Below the pieces are notes generated by a model. That model did no database searches, was not told the origin of the DNA, and saw only the letters and a program-made list of their open reading frames with translations. Both the position numbers and the translations under genes were made by a program. Shown in pieces: positions 4,886 through 61,685 of a DNA stretch of 64,000 bases. Numbering within the stretch: position 1 is the first letter of the stretch; each line of letters begins with the position of its first letter. Source of the DNA: Candidatus Melainabacteria bacterium (GTDB taxonomy: Bacteria > Cyanobacteriota > Vampirovibrionia > 2-02-FULL-35-15); NCBI GenBank assembly GCA_016193285.1, contig JACPSL010000018.1, forward strand, positions 3,589 to 67,588, in the 5' to 3' direction.

Positions 4886-5766
4886 TAATCAGCATCCGAA
4901 TATTTTAACAAACCTTGGTAACTGTCAATTCTTCTGTCTCTAAAAAAAGGCCATGTTTGTCTACATTTTTTTAATTTATTAAAACTAATTTCTACTTCTG
5001 ATATTGCTTCTGTGGTTTTGTCTTGATGGACAATTGAACCATATGGATTTGAAAGAAAAGAATGTCCCCAAAAATTTAAATGTCCTTCTTTGCCTACTCT
5101 ATTTACTGCCATTACATAAATTCCATTTGCAATTGCATGTGATCGCATAATCGTAGTCCAAGCATCTACCTGAGACTTGTTAAGGGCTTGTCGCGACAAG
5201 CCCTTACAGGATTCATCGTTATCCCAACCAATTGCAGTTGGATAGATTAAAATTTCAGCACCTTTTAATGCTGCAATCCTAGCTGCTTCTGGAAACCATT
5301 GATCCCAACAAATAAGCACACCAATATTTCCAACAGATGTCTTAGTTACAAGAAAACCACGATCTCCAGGAGTAAAATAATATTTTTCATAAAATCCTGG
5401 ATCATCTGGAATATGCATTTTCCTGTAGTGACCAATAATCTCTCCATTGTTTTCAAGTATTAAACAACTATTGTGATAAATTCCTTCTCTTCTTTTTTCA
5501 AATATTGGAAGTATTAAAACTATTTTTAATTCTTTTGCTAATAGCTGAAAGTGTTTAATAATGTCAGACTTAATTTCAAGAGCACTATTAAAGTGTTTTT
5601 TATCTTCTGTAATTGGGAAATAGTCCCATAAAAAAAGCTCTGGCAAAACAATAAGTTTTGTTTTGCTCTTGCACGCATCTTGTATTTTCTCTGAATAATA
5701 TTTTAAATTCTTATTAAGATTGCCTTGTGATTTACCTTGGATCCAAGCTGCTTTGAATGATTTCAT
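4885..5766 (-). CDS. aguB: N-carbamoylputrescine amidase (carbon-nitrogen hydrolase)
   Basis: LPELF, YRKMHIPDDPGFYEKYYF, ICWDQWFPEAAR, YPTAIGW; nitrilase E-K-C triad. Confidence 0.88.
   Translation of the reverse strand: MKSFKAAWIQGKSQGNLNKNLKYYSEKIQDACKSKTKLIVLPELFLWDYFPITEDKKHFNSALEIKSDIIKHFQLLAKELKIVLILPIFEKRREGIYHNSCLILENNGEIIGHYRKMHIPDDPGFYEKYYFTPGDRGFLVTKTSVGNIGVLICWDQWFPEAARIAALKGAEILIYPTAIGWDNDESCKGLSRQALNKSQVDAWTTIMRSHAIANGIYVMAVNRVGKEGHLNFWGHSFLSNPYGSIVHQDKTTEAISEVEISFNKLKKCRQTWPFFRDRRIDSYQGLLKYSDAD
5180..5207. repeat. GTAG-type palindromic element inside aguB
   Basis: Perfect 26-bp palindrome TAAGGGCTTGTCGCGACAAGCCCTTA (5181-5206); the minus strand begins GTAA-GGGC. Confidence 0.75.
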
Positions 5767-7411: not shown

Positions 7412-8161
7412 ATGGAAATAAAAACAGATACAAAAAAGATAATTATTGGTGCATTAATTGCAGTTGTTGTACTAAATGTTTTAGGTAAAGAGCTGCAAAA
7501 AAGTTTTGAAAAGTCAGTTTTAGAAGTTGTAAAGAAAAATCCAGAAGGATTTAAAACTGCCCTTGGTAATTTACCAACTGAAGTTACTCCGCCATCACCT
7601 GCCCAGCCCAGTGAAGAAGAACTTTTTAAGCAACAGTTAGAGGATAAGACAAGTGTAGATATTGGAAATACACCTATTCTTGGTAGAAGGGATGCAAAGA
7701 TTCAGTTAATTGTATTTAGTGATTTTCAATGTCCTTTCTCAAAACGTGGTGCAGATACTACTCATGCTTTAATTCAAAAATATGGAAACAAAATAATGTA
7801 TGTTTATAAAAATCTTCCTTTACCATTTCATCCTGAAGCAATGCCAGCAGCAAAAGCTGCACTAGCAGCCGGGAGACAAGGGAAGTATTATGAGTATCAT
7901 GATAAGCTTTTTGAAAATCAAGACAAATTAGGTGAACCGTTATATCTCCAGCTTGCAAAAGATCTTGGATTAAATATTGATAAGTTTAATACAGATAGAA
8001 AGAGCAAGGAAATTGAAGATCAAATTAATGCAGATACAACCCAAGCAAGTGCTATAGGTTTTAATGGCACTCCTGGTTTTACTTTAAATGGTGTAAAAAT
8101 TCTAGGAGCTTATCCAATTGAACATTTTGAAAAAGTAATTAGTGCTTTAGGAGTTAGTTAG
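7412..8161 (+). CDS. DsbA-family thioredoxin-fold protein with N-terminal membrane anchor
   Basis: FSDFQCPFSKR, NLPLPFHPEAMPAA, GFNGTPGF. Confidence 0.8.
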   Translation: MEIKTDTKKIIIGALIAVVVLNVLGKELQKSFEKSVLEVVKKNPEGFKTALGNLPTEVTPPSPAQPSEEELFKQQLEDKTSVDIGNTPILGRRDAKIQLIVFSDFQCPFSKRGADTTHALIQKYGNKIMYVYKNLPLPFHPEAMPAAKAALAAGRQGKYYEYHDKLFENQDKLGEPLYLQLAKDLGLNIDKFNTDRKSKEIEDQINADTTQASAIGFNGTPGFTLNGVKILGAYPIEHFEKVISALGVS

Positions 8162-13171: not shown

Positions 13172-13246
13172 TATTTTTAAAATATTTGTTACCAATGTAA
13201 CCTTTGGTTACATCAAATTTCATTTCAATTATGCATAATAATTGAA

Positions 13247-13831
13247 ATGGGCAATGATTTATTTCAGAACAAATATAGAATAAAATCTATTCGATTGGAG
13301 CATTGGGATTATTCATCTGATGGGGCATATTTTGTAACCATTTGTGTGAAAGATAGAGAATGTGTTTTGGGTGAAATTGTTAATGGAAAAATAAAATTAT
13401 CAAAAATCGGGGATATTGTGAAACAATGTTGGTGTGAAATTCCAAAACATTTTAAAAATGTTGATTCGGACGAATTTATTGTAATGCCAAACCATGTGCA
13501 TGGAATCATACAAATAACCAATGATGGTTGTGATGATGGTTGTAGAGACGCGATTAATCGCGTCTCTACGGGTACGGGTGGAATTACCCACAAATACAAC
13601 CCAATGTTGTCAAAATCATTATCAACAATAATCCGATGGTATAAAGGACGTTGCAAATATGAAATAAATAAAAATCAAAACAAAATATATTTCCAATGGC
13701 AACCACGATTTTATGAATCAATCATTCGTAATGAAAACCATTTGAATGCAGTACGTGAATATATTGTTAATAATCCTTCAAGATGGGAATTCGATAGAAA
13801 CAATAATCCTTTATACCACAGCCATTTGTAA
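13247..13831 (+). mobile_element. REP-associated tyrosine transposase (RAYT, Y1 HUH transposase)
   Basis: RL..WDYS..GAYFVTIC N-terminus, MPNHVHGII HUH motif, WQPRFYESIIR, YIVNNP catalytic Tyr. Confidence 0.88.
13542..13569. repeat. Perfect 28-bp GTAG-tagged palindrome inside the RAYT gene
   Basis: GTAGAGACGCGATTAATCGCGTCTCTAC is its own reverse complement. Confidence 0.9.
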
Positions 13832-28076: not shown

Positions 28077-28952
28077 ATGCCTGAAATTGAAGTCCCAGAT
28101 TTTTTTGTACCAAACCCAAAACAAGATCCAAGACTAAATGATTTAGTTAATTGGTTTAAAAAGTTTTGGGGTTACTTAATCTTTGTATTAATAATGCTTT
28201 TATTTCTTTCTGGTTCAATTGTAAAAGTAGATGCTGGAGAAAGAGCAGTTGTATTTAATATCTTTGGTGGCATAGAAAAAAGAGTTCTTGGAGAAGGGAT
28301 ACACATTGTTTTGCCACCAGTCCAATTAGCAACAATTTATGATGTTAAACAAGCAACCTATAATTTTACTTCAGATGAACAAGGCGGGCAAGGACAAGTA
28401 GTTGGAAGAGAAATACATTCACTAACATCTGATGGACAAAAAGTTGATGTGGAACTTTCTGTAAGAGCTAAACCACAACCAACTGAGCTTTGGAAATTAC
28501 ATAAAACTATTGGGCCTGACTATGCTTCAAAAGTAATATTTCCTAAAGCAAGATCAGTATTAAGGGAAGTACTTTCAACTTATCCTGTTGAAGATGTTTA
28601 CAGTGTAAAGAGGCAAGAAATACAAAACGAAATTCAAGAACAGCTTACAAATGATCTTGCAAGAAAATATTTTATTGATGTAGAAGAAATCTTAATTAGA
28701 AATGTAAGATTTTCAAAAGAATTTCAAGATGCAATAGATCGCAAACAACAAGCATTTCAGGAATTTTTAAAAATGGAATATGTTCTTGCTAGTGAAAGAG
28801 CCAAAAAAGATGCAAAAATCTTTCAAGCAGAAGGAGAAGCTAAAGCAATAAATCTAAGAGTTAATGCCTTAAGAGCAAATCCAGATTTTATAAAATACAG
28901 GAGAGCACAAATTTTTGGGAGGAAGGCAAAACTAATACTTAGCAATGAGTAA
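28077..28952 (+). CDS. SPFH/prohibitin family protein
   Basis: V.AGERAVVFN, LGEGIH, LTSDGQKV, LIRNVRFSKEFQDAIDRKQ. Confidence 0.88.
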   Translation: MPEIEVPDFFVPNPKQDPRLNDLVNWFKKFWGYLIFVLIMLLFLSGSIVKVDAGERAVVFNIFGGIEKRVLGEGIHIVLPPVQLATIYDVKQATYNFTSDEQGGQGQVVGREIHSLTSDGQKVDVELSVRAKPQPTELWKLHKTIGPDYASKVIFPKARSVLREVLSTYPVEDVYSVKRQEIQNEIQEQLTNDLARKYFIDVEEILIRNVRFSKEFQDAIDRKQQAFQEFLKMEYVLASERAKKDAKIFQAEGEAKAINLRVNALRANPDFIKYRRAQIFGRKAKLILSNE

Positions 28953-28968
28953 TGAGGAACAATAAATA

Positions 28969-29844
28969 ATGAATAAAGAGAGCTTAACAGCATTAGGAAT
29001 GGCAATATTAATTTCTCTTGTATTAATTTTTAGTGGTTCACTAATTAAAATTATTCCAGCAGGACATGCAGGTGTAGTGTTTAACTTATTTGGTGGAGTA
29101 GAAAAAAGAGTATTAAATGAAGGAGTTAATTTTGTTATTCCATTTGTTGAAGCAGTAACAACTTATGATGCAAGAAAGATCTCTTATACATTTTCTGACA
29201 ATCTCGAAAGAAGTTCAGTAGGACAAAGTATTAAATGCCAAACCAATGATGGACAACAAATTGACATTGACCTGACAGTAATTGCACACTTAGATAAAAA
29301 TAAAACATGGAAAATCCATCAGGATTTAGGAAGAGACTATGCTCAAAAACTTATAGTCCCTCAATCAAGAAGCATAATTAGAAATATAGTTGCTAAGTAT
29401 CCAATTGACACTGTTTATACATCTTCAAGAGCAGGCCTAGCTAAGGATGTAGAACATGCACTTAGAAAATCTTTTTTAAAAAGCGGACTTTACTTAGATG
29501 AATTATTAATCAGGGGGATTACTTTTTCACCTGCATTTGCAGAAGCAGTTGAAAGAAAACAAATTGCACTTCAGGAATCTCAAAGGCAAAATTGGATTAA
29601 AAAAACTGCTGAACGAGAGAAAGAAAGAAAAATTATTGAAGGCGAAGGTGATGCAAGAGCTTTATCAGTAAAAGGACAAGCACTTAGCTTGGATCCACGT
29701 ATTGCAGAACTTGAATTCTTAGAGCAAATTGAACAAAGAGAAACTGAGATTCCAATAATCACTGGAGCAATGAATGTAATATTATCTATTGGTGAACTAT
29801 TAAACGAACCTCTAAGAACATTGCCAAATAATACAAAAGAATAA
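28969..29844 (+). CDS. SPFH/prohibitin family protein (second paralog)
   Basis: IPAGHAGVVFN, LNEGVNF, LIRGITFSPAFAEAVERKQIA. Confidence 0.88.
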   Translation: MNKESLTALGMAILISLVLIFSGSLIKIIPAGHAGVVFNLFGGVEKRVLNEGVNFVIPFVEAVTTYDARKISYTFSDNLERSSVGQSIKCQTNDGQQIDIDLTVIAHLDKNKTWKIHQDLGRDYAQKLIVPQSRSIIRNIVAKYPIDTVYTSSRAGLAKDVEHALRKSFLKSGLYLDELLIRGITFSPAFAEAVERKQIALQESQRQNWIKKTAEREKERKIIEGEGDARALSVKGQALSLDPRIAELEFLEQIEQRETEIPIITGAMNVILSIGELLNEPLRTLPNNTKE

Positions 29845-30930
29845 ATGAAGAAAACTTTTTTACGAAATCCAAAAGGTTCAAGAGATTGGCTTCCAAATGA
29901 AGTAATTAAACAAGAGTTTGTAAGAAGATCTCTTGTTAAAGTATTTGAACTTTGGGGATACAGACCTATTCAAACTCCAATACTTATTAGCTGGGATACT
30001 TTAAGTCAAGGCAGTAGTAAACTTGCCGATGTTGCTTTTAAATTAATGGGTGAGCATGGAGAACTTTTAGCGTTAAGGGCTGATTTAACTACACCTATTG
30101 CTAGAGTTACTGCAGAAAGGATGCAGAAAGAAAAGTTACCATTTAGATTTTATTATGTTGGAAAAGTATTTAGATATCATGCAAGAAAAACAACAAACGA
30201 ACGCGAGCTTTATCAAGTTGGGATTGAGCTTATTGGCTCAAAAGAAGGAATTTCAGATTTAGAATGCTTACAAGTACTTTTAGATAGTTTAAGTAAACTT
30301 AAACTTAAAAAATATCTTGTCTTGTTTAATCACTCAACATTATGGGTTGAACTATTTAAATGTTTTGGAAATATTGCTCAAGAACTTTATAAAGCTTTGT
30401 CTAAAAAAGATTTAATCTTGTTTAATTTAATCCTTTCTAAATCCAAACTTTCAAACAAAGAAAAAGAATTTTGGAGTAGATTAATTCAAGTTAGAGGAAA
30501 TAAAGATGCAATTAAAGAAATCAAGCAATTAGCAAAGCTTGTCAAAAGATTAAAGATAAAAAAAATAATTTCTTATTTTGAAAAAATTTTAAACTTATTT
30601 GAAAATAATATTGAAATAGATTTAAGTTTAACTAGTGATGTTGATTATTATACGGGGATTTATTTTGAGGTTATTACTCCTTTTTTAGGAAGAAATATCG
30701 GTTCGGGTGGTAGATACGATGAGCTAATCAGCAAGTTTGGATTTAATACTCCTGCTATTGGTTTTTCTTTTTGTTTAGAAGATTTACTTTTAACTTTAGA
30801 AAATCAATCACATAAATTCCTAGACTTTAAGCCTCCTGAACTTATTGCAAAAGGAAGAAACATAAAAAATACTTTTAAAGCAATTAAAAAACTACACTCG
30901 AGAAACAAGAACGCAACAATAAAAATATGA
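29845..30930 (+). CDS. hisZ: ATP phosphoribosyltransferase regulatory subunit
   Basis: P.GSRDWLP, LALRADLTTPIAR, RELYQVGIELIG, YYTGIYFE, GGRYDEL; next to short hisG. Confidence 0.9.
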   Translation: MKKTFLRNPKGSRDWLPNEVIKQEFVRRSLVKVFELWGYRPIQTPILISWDTLSQGSSKLADVAFKLMGEHGELLALRADLTTPIARVTAERMQKEKLPFRFYYVGKVFRYHARKTTNERELYQVGIELIGSKEGISDLECLQVLLDSLSKLKLKKYLVLFNHSTLWVELFKCFGNIAQELYKALSKKDLILFNLILSKSKLSNKEKEFWSRLIQVRGNKDAIKEIKQLAKLVKRLKIKKIISYFEKILNLFENNIEIDLSLTSDVDYYTGIYFEVITPFLGRNIGSGGRYDELISKFGFNTPAIGFSFCLEDLLLTLENQSHKFLDFKPPELIAKGRNIKNTFKAIKKLHSRNKNATIKI

Positions 30931-40053: not shown

Positions 40054-41217
40054 ATGCTAAAAACTTATACAGATCAAAAATCTTCCTTGTTCATTACAAA
40101 ATGGAAAGATTGTCAAACCTTTGTAAGTAAAGTTAAATCACAAAGACCTCTTTTTATACTTGTAATTGCTTCTACTGAAACAGCATTAATTCCTGGAATA
40201 TCCAGTGCTGGACAAAATGTAGAGCTTTTAAAATTAACTCCAGCACTAGATGCTGACTTTTTACTTTCTAAAAAAGAAGAATTTAAAAATCAATTACCAG
40301 TATCACCAAGTGGTATTCCTTCCCCAGTAATTATTTCAAAAGCAATGATTGATTTACTAGATTTGGATATTTCAGTAATTGATGTTGGTGCCTTTGTAAA
40401 ACCTAAAGGTGAGCACATTAGTTTAAATATGGGTACTTCAAAATGCATAACTACTGGTAATGCTTTAGGACCTATAAAAACATCTTTCTTATTTCAAAAA
40501 GGTGAAAAACTTATTTCAAATTTTAATGCTTATCCTTATGTAGTAATTGGTGAATGTGTTCCAGGAGGGACAACCACTGCTTTAAGTGTATTGTGTGCAT
40601 TAGGAATCAATGCTTTTGATTTAGTTAACAGTAGCTCACCTGAAGGAAATAATCTTTGGAAAAATCAAACAGTAAAAGATGCTCTACTTACAAATGCTAA
40701 TTTATTTTCACGAGTAAATAAAAACCCACTTAAAGCAGTTGATTATTTTGGTGATCCAATGCAGGCTTTCGTTTGTGGTCTTATAAAAGGTGCACAAAAA
40801 GTAAATAAACCTATACTTCTTGCTGGAGGTTCTCAGATGCTTGCAGTATACTACTTAGCAAAGAAAGTTTTAGGTTATTCACCATATGATGTAGCAGTAG
40901 CAACAACTTCTTGGATTACAAATGATAAAAATGCTAAGACTAAAAAACTTGCTGAACTTGTTGATGCACCACTTACTTCATCAAATGTTCATTTTAAAGA
41001 CTCAAAATGCCAAGGGCTTTATGCATATGAAAATGGTCATATTAAAGAAGGTGTTGGTGCAGGTGGATTAATGGTGGTTGCTGATTGGTATAAGAATTTA
41101 ACACAAGAAGAAATTGTATCTAAAATAGAAAATGTTTATTGTAATTACTCAGCTGGCTCTGCGGAACTCTCGCTCCTTGAGCCAGCTTTCCATAGACCGC
41201 TCGGCTTGCCCAAGTAA
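40054..41217 (+). CDS. cobT: Nicotinate-mononucleotide-dependent phosphoribosyltransferase CobT (cyanobacterial/archaeal type)
   Basis: TETALIPGISSAG, PSPVIIS, GECVPGGTTTAL, LLAGGSQM, KEGVGAGG. Confidence 0.85.
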   Translation: MLKTYTDQKSSLFITKWKDCQTFVSKVKSQRPLFILVIASTETALIPGISSAGQNVELLKLTPALDADFLLSKKEEFKNQLPVSPSGIPSPVIISKAMIDLLDLDISVIDVGAFVKPKGEHISLNMGTSKCITTGNALGPIKTSFLFQKGEKLISNFNAYPYVVIGECVPGGTTTALSVLCALGINAFDLVNSSSPEGNNLWKNQTVKDALLTNANLFSRVNKNPLKAVDYFGDPMQAFVCGLIKGAQKVNKPILLAGGSQMLAVYYLAKKVLGYSPYDVAVATTSWITNDKNAKTKKLAELVDAPLTSSNVHFKDSKCQGLYAYENGHIKEGVGAGGLMVVADWYKNLTQEEIVSKIENVYCNYSAGSAELSLLEPAFHRPLGLPK

Positions 41218-41297
41218 ATTGGATCAAGCCTCACTTTATTAAATAGTATAATTCCGTGAAGGATAACCTAAGATAAATTAACGTGCTGAGTAATTAT
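41141..41297. mobile_element. MITE-like element, copy 1
   Basis: 12-bp terminal inverted repeat TAATTACTCAGC/GCTGAGTAATTA, ATT on both flanks, and a near-identical inverted copy at 60951-61119. Confidence 0.75.
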
Positions 41298-41303
41298 ATT
41301 CGG

Positions 41304-42086
41304 TCACAATAACAAAAATTGTTTAAAGATAACTACAAGACATAAAATAGTTACTTCACTTAATTCAATTAATGCTCCATAAGTATCACCTGTATGACCT
41401 TTAAAATGGTTATCAAGCCAGTGTGACCAGAGCAGACAAAAGACCATAGACAATAGACCATAGACTAGATAAATAAACTTTAGATGAAAACAAAATATAC
41501 ACATTAAGAAAACTATAACAAAACAAAAAAGATTTGCGAAAAAATCTCCCGGCTTTTTTACTCCAGATAAAAGTAAAGATGAACTTATTCCAGAGTCCTT
41601 ACTTTTATTTAAAAAAGTAAAAGAATATACAGCAGCTAATCTTGCAAGAGCACAAGAAATTATAATTACAAAAAATATCTTATTTAAAATAATAGTGCAA
41701 AGAGAAATTAATTTAAACAAAACAACAAAAATACCTGCCATTGCCCCAAAAGCACCTATTCTGCTATCTTTCATGGCTTCTATTTTTCTTGTTTTATCTT
41801 GACAATTAATGCCATCAAATGTATCCATTAATCCATCAAGATGCAAACCACCAGTAATTAAAACCCATAGAAATACAAGCAAAAGAGCTGAAAATAAAAC
41901 TGGTAATTTAAAATACAAAAAAATCTTAGCAAATAAAAAAAGAATTAAGCCTATTAAAAAACCTATTAAAGTAAAGTATGGTGCTATCCTTCCCCAGTCT
42001 TCTTTTGTTGCTTTTGGTAAAGGAGGCGCAGGCAATTTAGTTAAAAAAAGCCAGGCATAAAAAAAACGATGAAGTAACTTTATCAT
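41304..42086 (-). CDS. cobS: Adenosylcobinamide-GDP ribazoletransferase
   Basis: FLTKLP, TGGLHLDGLMDTFDG, MKDSRIGAFG, GHTGDTYGA. Confidence 0.92.
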   Translation of the reverse strand: MIKLLHRFFYAWLFLTKLPAPPLPKATKEDWGRIAPYFTLIGFLIGLILFLFAKIFLYFKLPVLFSALLLVFLWVLITGGLHLDGLMDTFDGINCQDKTRKIEAMKDSRIGAFGAMAGIFVVLFKLISLCTIILNKIFFVIIISCALARLAAVYSFTFLNKSKDSGISSSLLLSGVKKPGDFFANLFCFVIVFLMCIFCFHLKFIYLVYGLLSMVFCLLWSHWLDNHFKGHTGDTYGALIELSEVTILCLVVIFKQFLLL

Positions 42087-47508: not shown

Positions 47509-47816
47509 AAATCTTACAAAGAGAACACAATTTAGAAATAAAAATTTACAGAAAAATATTTTTATTTATTTTCTAGACCTACAAGCTAAATCCTTATTTT
47601 AGGGATATCCAGGATTTATTACCTACGCCAATTGGACGAATTTTCTACATTAAACCTTAACCTAAATATGTTTGTTTTATGATAAAGGGATAGCTAGGTT
47701 TCTAATGTAATTGTATGAGGCATTATGTGATAGAGAGCACTTACTATAAGGATTTAATAAGGTATAGTGTCTGAAGTTTTATTTCATTAAAGTAAAGTTA
47801 GAAAGGTTAATTAAAA

Positions 47817-52000: not shown

Positions 52001-53162
52001 AAAAATGATTTATGCAGATCATAGTGCTACTACACAAGCAAGGCCTGAAGTAATTCAAGCTGTGGTAAAGGTTCTAGAAGAAGACTTTGGCAATCCTTCA
52101 AGTATTCACTTTTACGGGAGAAAAGCAAAGGAACATTTAACTGGTGCTAGAACTGAAGTTGCATCAGTAATAAATGCAAAAGAAGAAGAAATAATTTTTA
52201 CAAGTGGTGGGACTGAAGCAGATAACATTGTTATTTTTGGTATTGCAAGGTCTTTTGAAGCACTTAAAATTAAAAATAAAGATAAACATATAATATCTAC
52301 TAAGATTGAACATCCAGCAATTAAAGAACCACTTGAGTACCTGGAGAAAAAAGGCTGGAGAATTACCTGGCTAAATGTAGATAAGGAAGGATTTATTGAT
52401 CTGAATGAACTTAGAAAAAATATTACAAAAAAAACATTACTAGTTTCAATCATTCATGCAAACAATGAAATTGGAACTATACAGGATTTAAAAGAAATTT
52501 CTAAAATATGTAAGGAAAATAATGTTTCATTTCACGCAGATGCAGTTCAATCTTTTGGGAAAATCCCTATAAATGTAAAAGAATTAAATATAGATTTTAT
52601 GTCAATGTCAGGACATAAGATCTATGGCCCAAAAGGAGTTGGAGCACTTTATCTGAAGTCTAAAGATTTTTTAGAGCCTTTAATAATGGGCGGTGGCCAG
52701 GAGAGTAATTTAAGACCAGGTACTGAAAATTTAGCTGGTATTGTTGGTTTTGGAGTTGCATCAAAGTTATTAAAAAAAGAAATAAATGAAAATGCAACAA
52801 GACTTCGAAAACTTCAAACCATGCTTATTGAAAGCTTGTCAAAAATAAAAGGTATTATTTTAACTGGTTCAGGTATTGAAAATAGAATTCCTGGCCATGT
52901 AAGTATTTGTTGTAAAGATGTAGAGGGTGAGAGTCTTGTTTTACAAATGGACTTGAAAGGCATTGCATGTAGTTCAGGATCAGCATGTAAATCTCATAAT
53001 GAGTTTGAACCATCTCATGTTTTACTTGCATGTGGAATTTCAAAAGAGTATGTAAAAGGCTCTCTAAGATTAACTCTAGGAAGAGAAAATACTAAAGAAG
53101 ACATAAATTACATTGTTGAATCAATTAAAGATATTGTAAACGTAAAGCTTCTAGTACCATAG
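51990..53162 (+). CDS. iscS: Cysteine desulfurase (IscS/NifS type)
   Basis: YADHSATT, GNPSSIH, FTSGGTEADN, SGHKIYGPKGVG, SSGSAC; ORF track starts at 51948, but 51990 or 52005 is likelier. Confidence 0.92.
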   Translation: MYNKKMIYADHSATTQARPEVIQAVVKVLEEDFGNPSSIHFYGRKAKEHLTGARTEVASVINAKEEEIIFTSGGTEADNIVIFGIARSFEALKIKNKDKHIISTKIEHPAIKEPLEYLEKKGWRITWLNVDKEGFIDLNELRKNITKKTLLVSIIHANNEIGTIQDLKEISKICKENNVSFHADAVQSFGKIPINVKELNIDFMSMSGHKIYGPKGVGALYLKSKDFLEPLIMGGGQESNLRPGTENLAGIVGFGVASKLLKKEINENATRLRKLQTMLIESLSKIKGIILTGSGIENRIPGHVSICCKDVEGESLVLQMDLKGIACSSGSACKSHNEFEPSHVLLACGISKEYVKGSLRLTLGRENTKEDINYIVESIKDIVNVKLLVP

Positions 53163-53179
53163 TTTAATCTCGAGAAATT

Positions 53180-53270
53180 CGGAGAGTGAGGGATTCGAAC
53201 CCTCGATAGAGCTTTTGGCCCTATAACTTCTTAGCAGGAAGTCGCTTTCGACCAACTCAGCCAACTCTCC
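53180..53270 (-). tRNA. tRNA-Ser(GCT)
   Basis: Minus strand GGAGAGTTGGCTGAGTTGGTCGAAAGCG..ACTTC-CTGCTAA-GAAGT, long variable arm, GGTTCGAATCC T-arm; CCA not encoded. Confidence 0.95.
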
Positions 53271-53278
53271 ATTTTTAT

Positions 53279-53354
53279 GCTCACGATAAGCGTGAGCTTC
53301 CGTTGGTAGATCCCTTTCACCTGATCGGATTCACCGAGTAAATCGGATGAATCC
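53279..53354. repeat. 76-nt double-hairpin element, copy A (immediately 5' of tRNA-Ser)
   Basis: Same stem, bulge, loop and 29-nt spacer geometry as 58518-58593, with compensatory changes. Confidence 0.7.
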
Positions 53355-53607
53355 TTTATTGATAACGCCTCGGAACTGCTACGCAAATTCCTCGGCTATT
53401 AGATGTGTCACATCACTCGCTCGGACTTCTGCCTTGGGAAAATCCTTGCTTAGAATTTTTATTTTTCAGTATACTCTTTGTTAGTATTTTTTCCCTAAGG
53501 GATTTATCCATTTTAACAGTAAATATTCCTAAATATTATACTGGTAGAATATCCCTTGCACAATTTGTCTATTATAAGATAAAGTCTTAATAGTTCTCTC
53601 GTGACAA

Positions 53608-54975
53608 ATGAAAAAGACAAATATAATTACAATTATTTTATTTACATTGATTGTTGCTCTTGCTGCTTTTATTTTAGAACAAGATAAAGTTACTGGAGAA
53701 ACTAGCTGCCCACAAATACAAACTGATTGTGCAGGTGAACCACCTGGATGTGATTCTCCATTTGGAATTTATGATCCAACAATATGTATGTGTACTTGTC
53801 CTACTTCAAAACCAAATGACTTAAGCAGTAATAAATGTCTATGTCCCCAAGGGCAATATGCACTGGGCAATATGTGTTCAAAAGTTATTCATGGGGACTG
53901 TTTCCCAAAATACAAACCTGTCTGTGGTTGTGATGGGGTAACTTATGGAAATAGTTGCGTAGCATCATTTTTAGGAGTAAAAAAGAAAACAAAAGGTATT
54001 TGTAATTCCTTAAACCAAGAATTCGTAGTTTGTTTATCTGACGGGGATTGTCCTTTTGGCAGTTGCCAAGACGGAAGAACTTACCAAAAATATTCTTGTC
54101 TTGAAAGTATATGTGAAGAGTTAAATTTCTTTGCTGATCCATGCTTAGTAACATCTTCAGATAGCTTAGGAGATATCACACTAAATAAAAACTTTGCAGG
54201 TTTATGGAAAGCAAGAGTTTCTTCAAGTTCAGTAGAGTGTATTATTTGTACTCAAGTTGTTCCTCAATGTTTAGCTAACCAGACTTTAGTACCTCAAAGT
54301 TGTACTGAATGTGCACATTGTGTTAATGCTGTTACATCTTCAAGCTCAAGTTCATCTTCTTCAGGTAGTTCTAGCTCTCTTTCTAGTAGCTCCTCTTCTG
54401 GTTATTGTTGTACTTGCAACAATAGTATGCTTAATTGTACTGGTACTCCAACTTGTTCTGTAGGTGGAGGCAACACAGTTGTCTGCTCTGGTAACGATGC
54501 TTTTTGCTGTCCTTCTACCAATCTTAACTGTAATAATGCTATCTCATTTAATCAGCTCTCTTGTGTCTCTTCTTCAAGAAGTTTGTCTCCTTCTAATAAT
54601 AGTAGTTCTTCATTGTCATCTTCAAGCTCAAGTAGTGAATCAGTTATAAAAACCAACTTGCTTCATATAAATGAAGGACTTAGTGGCTCAAGAATTATTA
54701 CATTTAAACTTTGTGTTAGAGATGGAAAACTAGAAGGAACAGTCCATCAAGGTGATGTATTTATAAATGGAGTAATAAAATCACAAAACATACTTTCAGA
54801 AAATGAGGTCATCATAGACATAGTAGATAAAAACAATAACTCAACAAACTTAAGACTAAATCTTATTAGCAAGCGAGAAATGCAAGTAACATTTTCTGAT
54901 GAGCATACAACAAATGCTAGAAAACTTAATCTTTTTAAAAGTTGTTTATTAAAAAATCAAAACTCAAGAAAGTAA
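53608..54975 (+). CDS. Secreted Cys-rich protein with Kazal-type domain and poly-Ser tracts
   Basis: N-terminal signal/TM; PVCGCDGVTYGNSCVA Kazal motif; multiple Cys modules and S-runs. Confidence 0.8.
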   Translation: MKKTNIITIILFTLIVALAAFILEQDKVTGETSCPQIQTDCAGEPPGCDSPFGIYDPTICMCTCPTSKPNDLSSNKCLCPQGQYALGNMCSKVIHGDCFPKYKPVCGCDGVTYGNSCVASFLGVKKKTKGICNSLNQEFVVCLSDGDCPFGSCQDGRTYQKYSCLESICEELNFFADPCLVTSSDSLGDITLNKNFAGLWKARVSSSSVECIICTQVVPQCLANQTLVPQSCTECAHCVNAVTSSSSSSSSSGSSSSLSSSSSSGYCCTCNNSMLNCTGTPTCSVGGGNTVVCSGNDAFCCPSTNLNCNNAISFNQLSCVSSSRSLSPSNNSSSSLSSSSSSSESVIKTNLLHINEGLSGSRIITFKLCVRDGKLEGTVHQGDVFINGVIKSQNILSENEVIIDIVDKNNNSTNLRLNLISKREMQVTFSDEHTTNARKLNLFKSCLLKNQNSRK

Positions 54976-57069
54976 CTACTCAAACTTAAAAGCCTTACTG
55001 TATACGCTTTTAGAAACAATTTGCTTATTACATTGAATCCCGCCTGAAGAAGAATTAAAAGATACATTAGTCTTTGGTTCAGCAATAAGGATTAGATCAG
55101 CAAATGTCATTGAAACAAATTTTGGAGTAATTCCTGTAATTGTTTTCCCATCATCTGAGATAGAAACAGAGCTAGAACAAAATTTATTACTTCTAAAACA
55201 TACTTTTATATTTTTTGTAAAAATTGAAGGGTCAATAAAACCATCAATAGTAAACTCTGTACCACCTGAAAGAGGTCCTTTAATTGGAGCAATGCTTTTA
55301 AGTATTGGGCCTGGCTGAAGTTCAGTTATTGAAGTAATTGTGCTATCTTGAAAGTCAGGAACTATCAAGTATCTGCCATATGGATCACTAATTAAAGAGC
55401 TATTTTCAGAACCTTCTCCAATTGAATATTCACATACTAATGATAAGTCTATTAAATTCAAAACTTTGATTTTTCTCTGAGAATCTTTTTGAGCTAAAAC
55501 TAAAACATTGTTATTGTCAGGAGTAATATCAACACCTAAAACATTACTGACATCATTAAATTCTACAGACTTAAGAATTCTTGCTAGTTTAAGATCAAAT
55601 GTGTCTAATTTATAAACAATAATTCCACTTTCATCAACAACATTAGCTACAGAAACAGCTATTTTGCCATCTTGACTTAAAGTTGAAATAGTTTTTCCCT
55701 CAACCTCAGTACCTAAAAAACGAATTATCAATTTATTATTAAGCAGATCTAATATGTGCAAAACATGTCTTCCCCCAAAAGAAGAAGCTACTGCCTTAGT
55801 AGATCCTAAATCAAATTTAATTCTGCTTAAAATCTCATCAACCTTAGAAGATATTTTTGCTGGTATATCAAACTTAATTAGTTTTCTTGTTCTATTTATA
55901 AAAATACCAATAGACTCAGCAAAAGCTTCACTAAAAGTTATTACTGCTTCTTTAAAATCTGGAGCAAACTCAATTGACTTAGCATTATCTGGTATGGAAA
56001 TTTCTTTCTCAATTTTTTCAGTAGAAGTGCTGGCAATTACAAACTGTGGAGATTTTTCATCATCATCACTGACAATTAATTTTTTCCCCTCGTTATCATT
56101 AAAGCTTGCTGCAGTGATGCCTTTCTTAGCAAAGTAAAGAGTTCGTACTCCGGAACTGTCTGAAGAGAATGGATTTACAGCGCTAACTGAATTGTTAGTT
56201 AAATCTATAATTTGAATAATTGGAAAACTTCCACTTGAGCTGGATGAAGTAGCACCTGAACTACTTGAAGAGGAACAAGGGTCACTAGAAAATGTAATTA
56301 AAATACACATTGCACCACTACTACTGCTTGAAGCTGTACAGGTGAATTGCTTATATTTTCTTCCATCGTTGCAAGAACTTAAAGGACATTGATCATCGCT
56401 TATACAAGCAAGGTTGCTTTGAAATCCACAATTTGCTTTTGTATATTTTTTAATTCCATTTGCTCTTGCAATACAACTATTTAAATAATTTTGATTATCA
56501 CATCCGCAAACTGCATCTTGTGTACTTGGACAGGTTAATGTACCAACTACACAAGAGGCCTCGTCAAAGTAATTTCCAGAAGAACATTTACAACTTGTTC
56601 CTTGATTAACTTGTTGAAGAAGAGTACTGCTTTCACTTGAAATTGCTGAAACAAGTGCTTTATTTTTATCTTTGCTGATGCCAATTTTTAAAACGTTAAG
56701 ATCTAAATTTTCCCCGCGTAGAGGAATAAGAACTTCATGATTAATCATGTTAGAAGAGAAATTAAATTTTCTAACATAAGGTTTTTTTGATGAATCAACA
56801 ATTAAAAAGAAAGAACCATCACTTGAAACTGATAAATCTGTAATATTATTTAAACACCTATCCTCTATGCATCTTGGAATACTACTAACTACTTCTGCTT
56901 TAACCGAGGCTATTAACAAAAGAAAAAAACTAAAAAAGACAACACAAGTATAAAATTTTTGTATGGATTTTACTAATAAATTGTTTTTAATGCATGACTT
57001 ATTCATTATTTTTAAATTATAGTTGTAGTTGCTAATTGGTCGTAGGGAAAGCTTTATAAATAATAACAA
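54976..57069 (-). CDS. Secreted beta-propeller-like protein with inserted Kazal-type/Cys-rich module, poly-Ser linkers and C-terminal IPT/TIG-like domain
   Basis: AVCGCDNQNYLNSCIA; propeller-like repeats (LSVSSDG, IEFAPDF, VDITPDN, ISDPYGR); PILKSIAPIKGPLSGGTEFTIDG. Confidence 0.75.
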   Translation of the reverse strand: MLLFIKLSLRPISNYNYNLKIMNKSCIKNNLLVKSIQKFYTCVVFFSFFLLLIASVKAEVVSSIPRCIEDRCLNNITDLSVSSDGSFFLIVDSSKKPYVRKFNFSSNMINHEVLIPLRGENLDLNVLKIGISKDKNKALVSAISSESSTLLQQVNQGTSCKCSSGNYFDEASCVVGTLTCPSTQDAVCGCDNQNYLNSCIARANGIKKYTKANCGFQSNLACISDDQCPLSSCNDGRKYKQFTCTASSSSSGAMCILITFSSDPCSSSSSSGATSSSSSGSFPIIQIIDLTNNSVSAVNPFSSDSSGVRTLYFAKKGITAASFNDNEGKKLIVSDDDEKSPQFVIASTSTEKIEKEISIPDNAKSIEFAPDFKEAVITFSEAFAESIGIFINRTRKLIKFDIPAKISSKVDEILSRIKFDLGSTKAVASSFGGRHVLHILDLLNNKLIIRFLGTEVEGKTISTLSQDGKIAVSVANVVDESGIIVYKLDTFDLKLARILKSVEFNDVSNVLGVDITPDNNNVLVLAQKDSQRKIKVLNLIDLSLVCEYSIGEGSENSSLISDPYGRYLIVPDFQDSTITSITELQPGPILKSIAPIKGPLSGGTEFTIDGFIDPSIFTKNIKVCFRSNKFCSSSVSISDDGKTITGITPKFVSMTFADLILIAEPKTNVSFNSSSGGIQCNKQIVSKSVYSKAFKFE

Positions 57070-57105
57070 TACTATTACATTGAAATATTTGCTATCATTA
57101 TTCAG

Positions 57106-58509
57106 ATGGCAAAGAAGGTTTTAATCGTCGGATGGGACTGTGCTTCACCTGACTGGGTATTTGATAAGTGGATTAATAATTTACCCACCTTAAAATTACT
57201 TTTTAAAAAGAGTGTTTATGGAAATCTTACAAGTACCATTCCACCAATTACTGTACCAGCATGGCAGTGTATGTTAACAAGCAAAGATCCTGGACAGCTT
57301 GGTGTTTATGGTTTTAGAAACAGGAAAGATTATAGCTACGATGGTCAGTACTTTTCAAATGGAGCTGATATTTTAGAGCCTGCTGTTTGGGACATACTTG
57401 GTAAAATAAATAAAAAATCAATCTTAGTTGGTGTACCACAAACATATCCTCCAAGACCAATTAATGGTCATATGGTAACTTGTTTTTTAACCCCAAGTAT
57501 TAAGTCACAATATACTTATCCAAATGAACTAAGATATGAAATAGAAGAAAATATTGGGGAATATATTCCTGATGTAAAACAATTTAGGACTGAAGACAGG
57601 GATTTTATTTTAAAGCAAATTTACGAAGCAACTAAAACAAGATTTAAAACTTTTAGACATCTTTTAAAAACAAAAGAGTGGGATTTTGCAATGATTGTTG
57701 AAATGGGCACAGATCGTATCCATCATAGCTTTTGGAAATTTTTAGATCCCTTGCATCCTAAATATGAAATTGGAAATAAATATGAAAATGTAATTCCAGA
57801 ATATTATAAATATCTCGACAATGAATTGGCAGAAACATTAAAATTGGTTGATTTAAATGAAACAGCAATAATGGTTGTATCTGACCATGGCGCAAAAGCA
57901 ATGATTGGAGGGATTTGCATAAATGAATGGCTTATAAAAGAAGGGCTTTTAACTTTAAAAGAATACCCAAAAACATTTACTCCAATTGAAAAATTAGAAA
58001 TTGACTGGTCTAAAACAAAAGTTTGGGGATCAGGTGGTTACTATGCACGAATATTTATAAATGTTCAAGGTCGAGAGCCAAACGGACAAATACCACAAAG
58101 TGAATATAAAGAACTCAGAGCCAAACTAAAAGAAAAAATTGAAAATATAAAAGATGAACGAGGAAGAAAGCTAGCTACAGTTGCATATATTCCAGAAGAA
58201 ATTTATAAGACAACAAATCGTATACCTCCAGATTTAATTGTAATTTTTGATGATTTAAGATGGAGATCGGTCGGTAGCGTAGGAATAAATTCTATTTATA
58301 CTTATGAAAATGATACAGGTCCTGATGAAGCCAATCATGCACAAGAAGGCTTGTATCTATTATTTGATCCAAAAAATATTTCAAGTGGTAGGAGAGATGA
58401 CAAGCATCATTTAATGGATATCGCACCAACAGTATTGGACCTTTTAGGTGTTAAAATACCTAGTGATATGCTAGGAAAATCAATTTGTGGGTTAGGGGTA
58501 CACGTTTGA
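57106..58509 (+). CDS. Alkaline-phosphatase-superfamily nucleotide pyrophosphatase/phosphodiesterase
   Basis: IVGWDCA, STIPPITVPAW...TSKDPG, DRIHHSFW, VSDHGA, NHAQEG, DIAPTVL. Confidence 0.88.
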   Translation: MAKKVLIVGWDCASPDWVFDKWINNLPTLKLLFKKSVYGNLTSTIPPITVPAWQCMLTSKDPGQLGVYGFRNRKDYSYDGQYFSNGADILEPAVWDILGKINKKSILVGVPQTYPPRPINGHMVTCFLTPSIKSQYTYPNELRYEIEENIGEYIPDVKQFRTEDRDFILKQIYEATKTRFKTFRHLLKTKEWDFAMIVEMGTDRIHHSFWKFLDPLHPKYEIGNKYENVIPEYYKYLDNELAETLKLVDLNETAIMVVSDHGAKAMIGGICINEWLIKEGLLTLKEYPKTFTPIEKLEIDWSKTKVWGSGGYYARIFINVQGREPNGQIPQSEYKELRAKLKEKIENIKDERGRKLATVAYIPEEIYKTTNRIPPDLIVIFDDLRWRSVGSVGINSIYTYENDTGPDEANHAQEGLYLLFDPKNISSGRRDDKHHLMDIAPTVLDLLGVKIPSDMLGKSICGLGVHV

Positions 58510-58517
58510 CGAATATA

Positions 58518-58593
58518 GGTTTTGTCCGATTTATTCGGCAAAACCGATCAAACTAGAAGGATTGGCAAAAGGAAGGTTCAGCTTGTCTGAACC
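58518..58593. repeat. 76-nt double-hairpin element, copy B
   Basis: GGTTTTG-T-CCGA-TTTAT-TCGG-CAAAACC, 29-nt spacer, GGTTCAG-CTTGT-CTGAACC; ends 9 nt before the ATG at 58603. Confidence 0.7.
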
Positions 58594-58602
58594 TATAAAA
58601 AA

Positions 58603-59097
58603 ATGAAAACAATCTGGTTTTGTGGTAACGATGAAAATAAATTAATTTCCTTAGCAGAAATGCTTGGTGAAGAATTAATTCTAAGAGATCAATTTGTAGA
58701 AGTAATTGTCCAAAGTGAAGTAAAAGAAATTCTTGGAAAAGGATTAAAAGATACGAATGAAGATAAATCTGTTTTTATTGACAGGCTTGGTTTTTTAGGA
58801 AATCTTCTTCATAGAAATAATATTTACGCACTGATTGTGTCAAGTGAAGCCACATTGAACGATAGAAAACCTGTTAAAGAGAATTATAAAAATTATGTAG
58901 GGGTTTGTCATGGCAAACCCAATGATCCATTGACAGATGTAGCATTAGATGAAAAAGATGATATCAAACAAAATGCAAAAAAAATAATAGATTACCTTGT
59001 AAAATTAAATTTAATTCCTGGAAAAAATACAAGTGCTTATTCAAAGGAAGAAGAAGAAGAGATTAGACGAAGATTAGAGAATTTAGGTTATGTGTAA
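58603..59097 (+). CDS. Adenylyl-sulfate kinase (CysC)-like protein lacking the P-loop
   Basis: TIWFCG, EEL..R...VEV, LGKGL....ED....I.RLGF...LL.RN follow CysC; no GxxGxGK(S/T); C-terminal YS.EEEEEI..RL..LGY. Confidence 0.65.
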   Translation: MKTIWFCGNDENKLISLAEMLGEELILRDQFVEVIVQSEVKEILGKGLKDTNEDKSVFIDRLGFLGNLLHRNNIYALIVSSEATLNDRKPVKENYKNYVGVCHGKPNDPLTDVALDEKDDIKQNAKKIIDYLVKLNLIPGKNTSAYSKEEEEEIRRRLENLGYV

Positions 59098-61189: not shown

Positions 61190-61569
61190 GGGGGCGTAAC
61201 AGTCTCGACAAGATTGAAGGATTCTGAATTGCAAGCAGTGGAAGCTTGGTTACCACTTAAAATATTCAAAGCAAAAAGAAACGATAATGTCGTTTACGTA
61301 AATTTCGGAGCTCCTGCATATGCAGTAGCTGCCTAATTTTATAGGCATCGAAACAGAGTGAAAGTGTGACTACCAACTCAAGCTCTGAACAAACCAGGTA
61401 GTTGCAGCTAATTAGTTTCTTGGTTTAGTAGTTAGCTTAAGATCAAAACCAAAACACCGGCGGGTGCCTGACCCACTCTTCAGCGGTTCTGAAGAAATTT
61501 CAAGACAAGCTTGTAGATATTTAAAACTTTTCATTTTTGGACAGGAGGGGCAGTTCCTCCTCGCCTCCA
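61190..61569 (+). ncRNA. ssrA: tmRNA (one-piece)
   Basis: GGGGGCG/CGCCTCC-A acceptor stem with G3:U70; CTCGAC near the 5' end; tag ORF 61271-61336 ending YAVAA-TAA; upstream TATAAT at 61177-61182. Confidence 0.9.
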
Positions 61570-61685
61570 AAAATTTAGAAATTAGAGAATTAGAATTTAT
61601 AGAACAAGAAAATATTCTAGATGCAAACCGGGTTTTGGATTTGAAGGAATAACCATCTATACTTCCAAACTTTAAAATTGTTCTA

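Follow-up and report, generated by a model that had tools for sequence, protein, structure and literature searches.

The question raised by a 64,000-nt stretch of a Candidatus Melainabacteria contig (JACPSL010000018.1, positions 3,589 to 67,588; hereafter the window) is what two small double hairpins, alike in shape and different in the sequence of their stems, are doing immediately before a tRNA gene and a protein-coding gene. An earlier note had described them as copies A and B of a 76-nt element and had offered two explanations, a DNA substrate of an HUH transposase and a cis-acting leader RNA. We found that both hairpins are kept by compensatory substitutions across a large family. This family is new to Rfam and to the literature searched, and it is of a familiar general sort, that of the bacterial interspersed hairpin repeats.

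Copy A (53354-53279, minus strand) reads GGATTCA-T-CCGA-TTTAC-TCGG-TGAATCC and, after 29 nt, GCTCACG-CTTAT-CGTGAGC, followed by ATAAAAAT and the tRNA-Ser(GCU) gene. Copy B (58518-58593, plus strand) reads GGTTTTG-T-CCGA-TTTAT-TCGG-CAAAACC and, after 29 nt, GGTTCAG-CTTGT-CTGAACC, followed by TATAAAAAA and the ATG of an open reading frame (ORF) of 164 aa. Both share one fold, in which a first hairpin (P1; 7 bp, a bulged T, 4 bp and a 5-nt loop) is joined by a 29-nt spacer to a second (P2; 7 bp and a 5-nt loop). The sequences and folds of the earlier note were reproduced, with minimum free energies of -27.2 kcal/mol for copy A and -23.7 kcal/mol for copy B (z -3.3 and -3.1 against dinucleotide shuffles, that is, about -3.2). 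Its statement that every stem difference is compensatory was also confirmed by direct reading, as the copies differ at 3 + 4 pairs and 7/7 are Watson-Crick swaps. The core pattern is found at two places in the window, where 100 shuffles gave an expectation of 0.00. The gap from the end of copy A to the tRNA gene is 7-8 nt, and that from the end of copy B to the ATG at 58603 is 9 nt.

Exact-pattern scans were made of genomes, one per species, and in parallel of metagenomes and viral contigs, and a covariance model was built from 17 copies; the loci thus drawn from other genomes and metagenomes, which were searched as 8-kb loci, carry L-numbers (L004, L049, etc.). The genome scan returned 16 loci, of which 15 lie in metagenome-assembled genomes (MAGs) of Melainabacteria/Caenarcanales, with up to six hits in one genome; the 16th, from Roseibium, is a chance match without a hairpin. 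The metagenome scan returned 56 loci, and the viral contigs scanned had no match to the element. With the covariance model, 85 strong copies were recovered (71 non-redundant), nearly all of them from Melainabacteria/Caenarcanales MAGs and groundwater metagenomes. In the 85-sequence alignment 96.0% of the cells are paired, as against 22-46% when the partner column is slid, and compensatory double changes are found at 18 of the 19 base pairs, values that none of 500 shuffles reached. All P2 pairs covary, though P2 was never part of the search pattern, and in some copies the inner stem of P1 is itself altered (CCAG/CTGG, CCAA/TTGG, GTGA/TCAC, CTGG/CCAG). The proposal of the earlier note that selection acts on the structure of the stems and not on their sequence thus holds across the 85 homologues, and the possibility it allowed for, a chance or decayed pair, is not borne out.

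No known RNA family accounts for these sequences. When Rfam 15 was run on the window, only tRNA and tmRNA were found at the gathering thresholds, and nothing overlapped copy A or B even at E<=10 (region 52900-59000), which agrees with the novelty supposed beforehand; on twenty further element loci Rfam reported tRNAs only. Guesses at glutamine-II/Downstream-peptide, preQ1-I, Yfr2 and C/D box RNAs were not borne out, Rfam giving no match. In the literature searched, neither the core sequences nor Melainabacteria repeats led to anything relevant.

The alignment extends the element beyond the 76 nt first described: the core stands, and the true unit is longer, as conservation reaches over about 22 nt of 5' flank and takes in a 3' tail of 7 nt. 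The full unit of about 105 nt consists of 1) a 5' flank, aligned on the P1 foot and conserved back to about -22, with the consensus ..AAAC[G/T]TACTTGCAAnTATA directly before the GG of P1 and with A at position -1 in 70/71 copies; 2) P1, of 7 bp, a bulge and 4 bp, the bulge being T in 69/70 copies and the loop TTTAT or TTTAC in 64/70, with GATCA next; 3) a purine-rich linker of about 29 nt, variable save that it opens with GATCA and closes with (G)GAAG; 4) P2, of 7-8 bp, with the loop CTTGT in 57/70 copies; and 5) a tail, aligned on the P2 foot, of the form aTATAAA, with A at +5 and +6 in 63/66 copies. In L004 (5450-5525, minus) the P2 loop is inverted (AGACAAGCA, the reverse complement of GCTTGTCT) on an otherwise similar stem, which looks like a hairpin "loop flip" mutation. 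Three further pairings were considered and rejected. A pseudoknot between GACAA of the 5' flank and UUGUC of the P2 loop is contradicted by the loop variants CCUGU, CUUGC, UUUGU and CUUAU, which occur without a matching change in the flank; a closing helix between UAUA of the flank and UAUAA of the tail is lost in UUAAA variants; and a third helix (GAUCAA/UUGAUC) within the linker is lacking from many copies, though some have it, and does not characterize the family.

The units recognized in the window on this basis, and the genes next to copies A and B, are as follows.

53272-53376, minus strand: copy A, full unit (covariance model 93.5 bits, E 4.6e-21; sequence; fold), with 5' flank 53355-53376 (GCGTTATCAATAAA directly 5' of P1), P1 53327-53354, linker 53298-53326 (GATCA...ACGGAA), P2 53279-53297 (loop CTTAT) and tail ATAAAAA(T) 53271/2-53278
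53179-53271, minus strand: tRNA-Ser(GCU) gene (ARAGORN; Rfam tRNA, 59.3 bits)
58496-58602, plus strand: copy B, full unit (covariance model 105.8 bits; sequence; fold), with 5' flank 58496-58517, P1 58518-58545, linker 58546-58574, P2 58575-58593 (loop CTTGT) and tail TATAAAAAA 58594-58602
58603-59097, plus strand: gene for a 164-aa P-loop protein with a weak APS-kinase-like match, its ATG 9 nt past copy B
41139-41244, minus strand: copy C, diverged (covariance model 34 bits, E 4e-06; fold -39.8 kcal/mol, z -4.1)
53360-53451, minus strand: copy D, diverged, in tandem directly upstream of copy A (fold; assigned by eye, missed by the covariance model)
47564-47655, minus strand: possible fifth copy, very weak and degenerate, not relied on here (covariance model 15.8 bits, E 0.15)

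Copy A would make up the 5' leader of tRNA-Ser(GCU). The 5' flank of copy B coincides with the last codons and the TGA stop (58507-58509) of an upstream phosphodiesterase gene, and the N-terminus (MKTIWF) of the P-loop protein that follows is kept in more than 100 orthologue clusters, whether an element lies upstream or not. Copy C, situated between a cobS-like gene (41304-42086, minus) and a convergent cobT-like gene (40054-41217, plus), has the P1 GGCTTG-AT-CCAA-TTTAC-TTGG-G-CAAGCC (41203-41230), with compensated changes in its inner stem, and then a linker that is short and a P2 that is long (41150-41187). In copy D, a P1-like hairpin (53423-53445, GGATTTT..GAAGTCC, with two G.T pairs) is followed by another hairpin, X (53367-53396, GCC-GA-GGAA..TTCC-GA-GGC), which takes the place of P2, and the tail GTTATCAATAAA of copy D serves as the 5' flank of copy A as well.

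The position directly 5' of a gene, pointed out for the two original copies, holds for the whole family as a polarity towards start codons. Among the 71 non-redundant copies the next downstream feature is a same-strand start codon in 46, at no more than 12 nt from P2 in 20 and no more than 44 nt in 33, and the end of a convergent gene in 18; a divergent start codon on the P1 side never lies closer than 56 nt to P1. The window genes mostly have no Shine-Dalgarno sequence, and an A-rich stretch before the ATG is the rule. tRNA genes are over-represented among the neighbours of the element, which lies 8-14 nt upstream, in sense orientation, of tRNA-Ser (window), tRNA-Thr (L015) and tRNA-Gly (L021, with three tandem copies), and likewise before a tRNA-like sequence recognized by eye in L052; in L010, L053, L065 and L004 it is placed tail-to-tail with tRNA genes. 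Two side observations concern stable RNAs: in L011 (~4960-4990) and L026 (~1175-1200) the element is followed by a shared sequence, TTGCGGAGGACGGCA, that resembles the reverse complement of a tRNA 3' end and is called by neither ARAGORN nor Rfam, and a tmRNA gene (61190-61572, plus; Rfam 77.9 bits) lies 2 kb from copy B.

From their N-termini we take, by eye, the genes downstream to include those for MurJ, PurA, CarB, Pgk, NadB, MurI and ATP synthase c; others presumably encode Rrf2 and rhodanese proteins, band-7 proteins, a radical-SAM enzyme and more. The 41 downstream ORFs, so judged, thus fall to the cell wall, purines, pyrimidines, glycolysis, NAD, ATP synthase and regulators, with tRNAs in addition. 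Since these diverse housekeeping genes are functionally unrelated, a riboswitch for one metabolite is excluded and a gene-specific regulator is disfavoured. Hence, of the idea of a cis-acting leader RNA, the position 5' of genes stands family-wide, and the gene-specific regulator does not.

A wider form of regulation would be a regulon-type leader, in which a single factor acting in trans, whether RNA-binding protein, small RNA or ligand, binds to the loops of P1 and P2 and co-regulates genes and tRNAs together. It would explain why the loops, the bulge and GAUCA are invariant, across paralogues and species, while the stems covary, why the element stands at a fixed position 6-12 nt before the start codon, and why orthologous genes of several genomes retain it (Rrf2 in L008/L045, rhodanese in L016/L029, and L049a/L065a). 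Besides the mixed functions downstream, what makes such a regulon unlikely is that the same gene has the element in one genome and is without it in a close relative, that tandem arrays, lone modules, copies between convergent genes and copies antisense to tRNAs all occur, and that the element shows no conserved unpaired core or switch-type alternative pairing and has a variable linker.

The closeness to gene starts also recalls a DNA or transcription signal, either a promoter (sigma-70, antisense, or phage-type with TATA-GG across the P1 foot), a terminator on the opposite strand, or both. The 5' flank contains TTGCAA/TTGACA..TATA-GG and the tail TATAAA; read as its reverse complement, the flank resembles TATAAT, and 18 nt upstream of this, within P1, stands TTGCCG; a stretch rich in T comes after P1 on the opposite strand; in several copies the element follows a tRNA gene tail-to-tail, a place that would profit from a terminator; and symmetric Watson-Crick pairing suits a hairpin needed on both strands. 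Consensus scans gave hits only at the level of shuffled sequences, 27 vs 27.8 for promoters and 3 vs 2.9 for terminators. Strong -10 boxes do not cluster at a fixed distance upstream of P1, and if TTGACA were the -35 box, the -10 position would coincide with the P1 loop, whose ATTTAY is a poor match, so a sense sigma-70 promoter was rejected. An antisense promoter at the TATAAT-like flank was rejected as well, the key A being present in just 34/71 copies and no better kept where a divergent gene lies upstream (8/32 vs 13/34). As a -10 box for a leaderless start the TATAAA tail lacks the final T and, at 0-4 nt from the ATG, is too near. TATA-GG resembles promoters of phage-type RNA polymerases, and nothing further speaks for such a promoter. 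On the sense strand no hairpin is followed by a T-run, as in an intrinsic terminator, for P1 is followed by GAUCA and P2 by AUAUAAA; the antisense tracts are partly U-rich, and the terminator scan flagged only the antisense form of P2 of copy B. Covarying stems would, moreover, be left unexplained by a promoter, and a signal of this kind is very improbable.

Still less credence can be given to a translated leader, that is, an upstream open reading frame (uORF) running from a duplicated ATG through the element (..RICPIYSANPI..SLSRAI*) to a stop in the tail, with termination-reinitiation at the gene. At least 8 copies have an in-frame ATG 25-46 nt upstream of P1, from which a frame runs to a TAA/TGA that touches or overlaps the main ATG. 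In most copies, however, there is no ATG upstream; the frame is open in 33/71 copies and a second frame in 31/71, covariation in the stems alters the encoded residues, and a uORF would be of no use to copies ahead of tRNAs.

If the element is dispersed and not tied to particular genes, as proposed in the earlier note, orthologous loci should differ in its presence, and this is what was found. In L049 it precedes each of three consecutive genes (band-7, band-7, hisZ-like), whereas in the window their three counterparts (28077-30927, 70-74% protein identity) follow one another at intervals of 16 and 0 nt with no element. The purA leader contains it in L012 and is empty in L009/L024 (83% identity). 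Beside this locus, a conserved non-coding sequence, CAAAG[G/T]AGGGTTAAGAAAAGAATTGA.., follows element L012a (L012 ~1700-2300, minus) and is also found upstream of the element-free purA of another genome (L024 ~1190-1330). The locus of copy B (phosphodiesterase, kinase-like, Fe-ADH and NTP-transferase genes) was compared with nine other genomes. Its junction is empty in L073, L077 and L079, where there is only an ATGA stop/start overlap, so that the syntenic sites without copy B that were to be looked for do exist; in L075 it holds nothing but a P2 module, which is translated as the C-terminal end of the protein upstream, and in L076 and L078 it holds unrelated small GC hairpins. In the remaining three a different double hairpin, Y, is found there.

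L074 2890-3000, L080 1420-1500 and L071 1-24: unit Y, exactly at the copy B junction

Unit Y reads TTCCCAA..ATTGGGA, about 33 nt, ATTCCCGC-TTTC-GCGGGAAT, an A-rich tail and ATG, and this junction seems to attract hairpin modules of several families. The end of the phosphodiesterase itself is affected, sequence of the element being translated as its C-terminal tail in L075 (2960-3004, ..GKPELVEGYKK*) and in the window (58496-58509, ..GVHV*). Some database calls of the kinase-like protein (P0035, P0036, P0006) have spurious N-terminal extensions that appear to read through the sequence before the true ATG.

The junction before the phosphodiesterase gene tells a similar story, with full orthologous elements in L074 and L076, none in the window and L075, and only a remnant (the P2 3' arm and the tail) in L073. 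These remnants indicate that deletion also contributes to the patchy distribution. The window phosphodiesterase gene looks leaderless, having an extended -10 box, TGcTATCAT, 7 nt before its ATG (57085-57108); this box is kept in L073, L074 and L076, where the element or its remnant parts it from the ATG, and TATAAT-like boxes lie 6-8 nt before the ATG of several other window genes (e.g. those starting at 43357, minus, and 33074, plus).

Parts of the element are also found apart and recombined. P2 occurs alone in L075, L009, L007 and L066; P1 is combined with hairpin X in L055 and L025; and tandem arrays comprise three copies in L021, two in L070 and, in the window, the X-type copy D abutting copy A. 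Hairpin X (TAATAGCYGAGGnn-TYTGCGTRGCAG-nnCCGARGCGTTA, with a tandem G.A internal loop) was found in 4 loci, namely the window (53367-53396, minus), L021 (~7790-7830), L025 (~1330-1365) and L055 (~4160-4195). Its stem covaries (GGAA/TTCC vs GGCG/CGCC), and in L055 and L025 it substitutes for P2 behind a canonical P1. The family is thus intergenic and multi-copy, with several copies to a contig or genome, and has modules that occur alone or recombined and that vary between relatives, as in mosaic repeats. Syntenic presence/absence, single modules and tandem arrays together bear out the suggestion of a non-autonomous dispersed element, and that it is gained and lost in this manner is well supported and very probable. 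In four metagenome DNA runs that hold the window neither a variant nor an excision joint was found, and the window copies are stable on the time scale sampled by these runs.

Traces of insertion were sought in the flanks. In several copies the region of the start codon is repeated just outside the 5' flank:

L017: AA[C/T]AAATGAAAATA, 14 nt, one mismatch
L067: AAAAATGAA
L048: ATGAAAA
L049b and L049d: ATGAAA
L074: AATGAC, matching the gene's own second codon
L049a: element that appears to split AAGGAG-N10-ATG, with ATAAACGAA on both sides; ambiguous, as the left copy fits the element's own 5'-flank consensus

When repeats within the same copy were compared with cross-copy repeats in a position-restricted test, flanking direct repeats of 5-14 nt were found in 13/63 copies (scoring >=7) against 8.7 expected (permutation p ~0.013). 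Lys is codon 2 in 13/25 genes lying no more than 12 nt from P2, against a 20% background (p 3.6e-4). The left boundary appears at different places, from -12 to -29, and the left end (..AAACKTACTTGCAA) and right end (..GGGCTATATAAA), compared by eye for terminal inverted repeats, are not reverse complements. There is moderate evidence for insertion with target-site duplication at A-rich start regions.

Once resident, a copy continues to be maintained as a structure. In the orthologous copies of L074 and L076 the flank, linker and P2 are common and the inner stem of P1 has been remodelled with the hairpin kept (TCAA/TTGG with loop TTTAT in one, CCGCC/GGCGG with loop TAG in the other), and between L016 and L029 (rhodanese, 87% protein identity) the differences are confined to the linker. 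Both comparisons suggest that structure matters at the resident locus, beyond any master copy.

As the earlier note had pointed out, the stems nearly lack G-U pairs. Wobbles are rare family-wide (10 among 1318 cells) and nearly symmetric (10 G.T/T.G vs 7 A.C/C.A), and so few wobble pairs are unusual for an RNA-only structure. Tandem G.A/A.G pairs occur within P2 in 17 copies (AGCCC-GA-G CTTGT C-GA-GGGCT), and hairpin X has them likewise. Since these pairs are stable on the sense strand and would be pyrimidine-pyrimidine clashes on the other, and since the sense strand faces the gene, the sense strand is taken as the functional one. It may act as RNA or as DNA.

Acting as DNA, the element could be a single-stranded DNA (ssDNA) substrate moved by an HUH Y1 enzyme, either as an IS200/IS605-derived PATE or as a REP/RAYT substrate, in which case the covariation would reflect selection for transposability. 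The guide tetranucleotide of such elements sits 5' of the hairpin foot (PMC6006769), and a conserved TAWA is found directly 5' of the P1 foot, along with the extrahelical T (69/70) and the nearly pure Watson-Crick stems. In the lengths of its flanks (left about 20 nt, right 7-10 nt) the element is reminiscent of IS608 geometry, and the presence/absence in synteny fits a mobile HUH element. A RAYT-like protein is, furthermore, encoded in the window, by an ORF at 13247-13831 (plus) with the HUH motif PNHVHGII and the Tyr motif RFYESIIR (Pfam Y1_Tnp, 27.5 bits; NCBIfam REP_Tyr_transpos, 59 bits, under the model cutoff of 80). This ORF is preceded, however, by a hairpin of its own, TGTAACC-TTT-GGTTACA (13196-13212), and not by P1/P2. 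The same hairpin (~3725) precedes a 50%-identical homologue in L076 (3759-4316), which is non-syntenic, lying between kinase-like and Fe-ADH genes; further copies of it are present in L012 and L013 (two). The RAYT-like gene and the TGTAACC hairpin probably form a separate small REP-like or IS200-like system. As the gene has this cognate hairpin, unlike P1 or P2, a link between it and the element is unsupported. Consistent with this, the covariance model gave no element hit near 13247-13831, and no RAYT homologue was found near any of the 85 copies (526 kb around elements). P1 and P2 are also unlike in sequence and shape, P2 having no bulge; GTAG/CGTC tags and head-to-head dimers are lacking; no conserved target tetranucleotide lies past the flank (about -22); flanking direct repeats are present, whereas "peel and paste" single-strand transposition makes none; and the tandem G.A pairs and the in-place remodelling of orthologous copies point to selection at each locus. 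The proposal that the element is an HUH/RAYT substrate thus fared poorly, and we regard it as distinctly unlikely.

Known systems offer further comparisons. IS608 and PATEs have no terminal inverted repeats; hairpins with an extrahelical T lie subterminally at their ends, and the left and right end hairpins of IS200/IS605 elements resemble each other (IS608, ISDra2). The element is like a PATE in its extrahelical T, its tetranucleotide 5' of the hairpin foot and its want of terminal inverted repeats, but P1 (bulge, loop TTTAY, inner stem CCGA/TCGG) and P2 (no bulge, CTTGT) share no sequence. IS200/IS605 elements use a target tetranucleotide and make no target-site duplication (PMC6006769); here no target tetranucleotide is conserved, direct repeats flank some copies and no tnpA/tnpB is nearby. 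MITEs, or miniature inverted-repeat transposable elements (such as Correia/NEMIS, ERIC and RUP), are non-autonomous, about 100-150 bp long and gene-adjacent, have target-site duplications, are co-transcribed and can alter expression. In contrast to them, no terminal inverted repeats were found in the element, its direct repeats vary in length (5-14 bp) and its ends are unrelated.

The BOX elements of Streptococcus pneumoniae (boxA-boxB-boxC) are modular and intergenic, often lie near gene starts and form stable RNA structures; we know of no transposase for them. Their modular composition is like that found here, though there is no sequence relation and the phylum is different, and the element, known from sequence alone, differs in its fixed distance to the start codon and its association with tRNA genes. 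REP/BIME are short intergenic imperfect palindromes of 20-40 nt, present in many copies and as mosaic units with linkers; they are co-transcribed, have been reported to stabilise mRNA and to affect termination and translation, and vary in abundance between relatives (PMC3733652, PMC6006769). A REP carries an unpaired GTAG or CGTC tag at the end of the palindrome, occurs mostly in head-to-head inverted pairs and lies mainly downstream of coding regions (PMC3733652), and a RAYT gene flanked by its cognate REPs is a REPtron (PMC6006769). The element resembles the REP/BIME of enterobacteria and pseudomonads (REPINs mobilised by RAYT) in its multi-copy hairpins, mosaic units and variable presence. 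It differs from them in i) having no GTAG/CGTC, the foot of P1 lying between TAWA and GATCA and that of P2 between GGAAG and ATATAAA; ii) having two unlike hairpins in one orientation, with one back-to-back pair of whole elements seen (L022/L054); iii) lying mainly upstream of genes with strict polarity, where REPs are mainly downstream; and iv) not flanking a RAYT-like gene (window, L076). The element is best placed among the bacterial interspersed mosaic hairpin repeats (REP/BIME, BOX), though without the features that define a REP, a PATE or a MITE, and is distinguished by its strict polarity and its close adjacency to start codons and tRNA 5' ends.

The explanation that we favour, tentatively and at a little short of an even chance, combines these points: a BIME/BOX-like mosaic repeat of groundwater Caenarcanales-type Melainabacteria that is co-transcribed as leader or intercistronic RNA. 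Such an element would have come in by insertion where the sequence around a start codon is rich in A, with repeats of 5-14 bp that include the ATG still present in some copies, and would be transcribed together with the downstream gene. Its two stable hairpins may then serve as generic "bumpers" that shield the ends of the transcript or define them and insulate one cistron from the next, and the AU-rich tail, being unpaired, would keep the start codon accessible in an organism mostly without Shine-Dalgarno sequences; ahead of genes, only insertions in sense orientation would survive. The invariant loops and the bulged U suggest, in addition, sequence-specific recognition by a trans-acting protein, which could be a mobilising enzyme or an RNA-binding protein.

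Several points weigh against this combined explanation. About one quarter of the copies have no sense gene downstream, being between convergent genes or tail-to-tail with tRNA genes. Part of the presence/absence pattern may reflect deletion, as the L073 remnants indicate; the evidence for target-site duplication is modest and the boundaries of the element are fuzzy. In 571 kb no autonomous P1..ORF..P2 version was found, nor a mobilising gene or terminal inverted repeats. The scarcity and symmetry of the wobbles would fit a role at the level of DNA or of both strands. Only DNA runs hold these genomes (window, L066), so transcription, strand and processing are inferred, and the "bumper" function is drawn by analogy from REP/BOX-type elements.

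In a bolder alternative the element is a mobile "portable leader": landing on or across a start codon or the start of a transcript, it would duplicate the ATG and usurp the entire translation-initiation region of housekeeping genes, and tRNA leaders likewise, by a mechanism undescribed in bacteria, its loops being read by a dedicated protein. Repeats of variable length, ragged 5' ends and an A-rich 3' tail would fit an RNA-mediated (target-primed) route or the targeting of ssDNA in promoter bubbles. We consider this alternative quite improbable.

Melainabacteria are non-photosynthetic sisters of the cyanobacteria, with no genetics, and to our knowledge almost nothing is known of their gene expression. 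A covarying module placed before start codons and tRNAs therefore offers a handle on their leader architecture, mRNA processing and genome dynamics. There are perhaps a hundred copies per genome, a number extrapolated from the four copies in the 64 kb of the window. The covariance model can be used as a clade marker in metagenomes, and the element explains mis-called N- and C-termini, as in L075, the window phosphodiesterase gene and several extended calls of the kinase-like protein. Were a host protein to bind the element, a large post-transcriptional network would be marked out by it; were the element instead mobile and aimed at start codons, it would be an example of selfish DNA that takes the place of a gene's whole initiation region and yet does not kill the gene.

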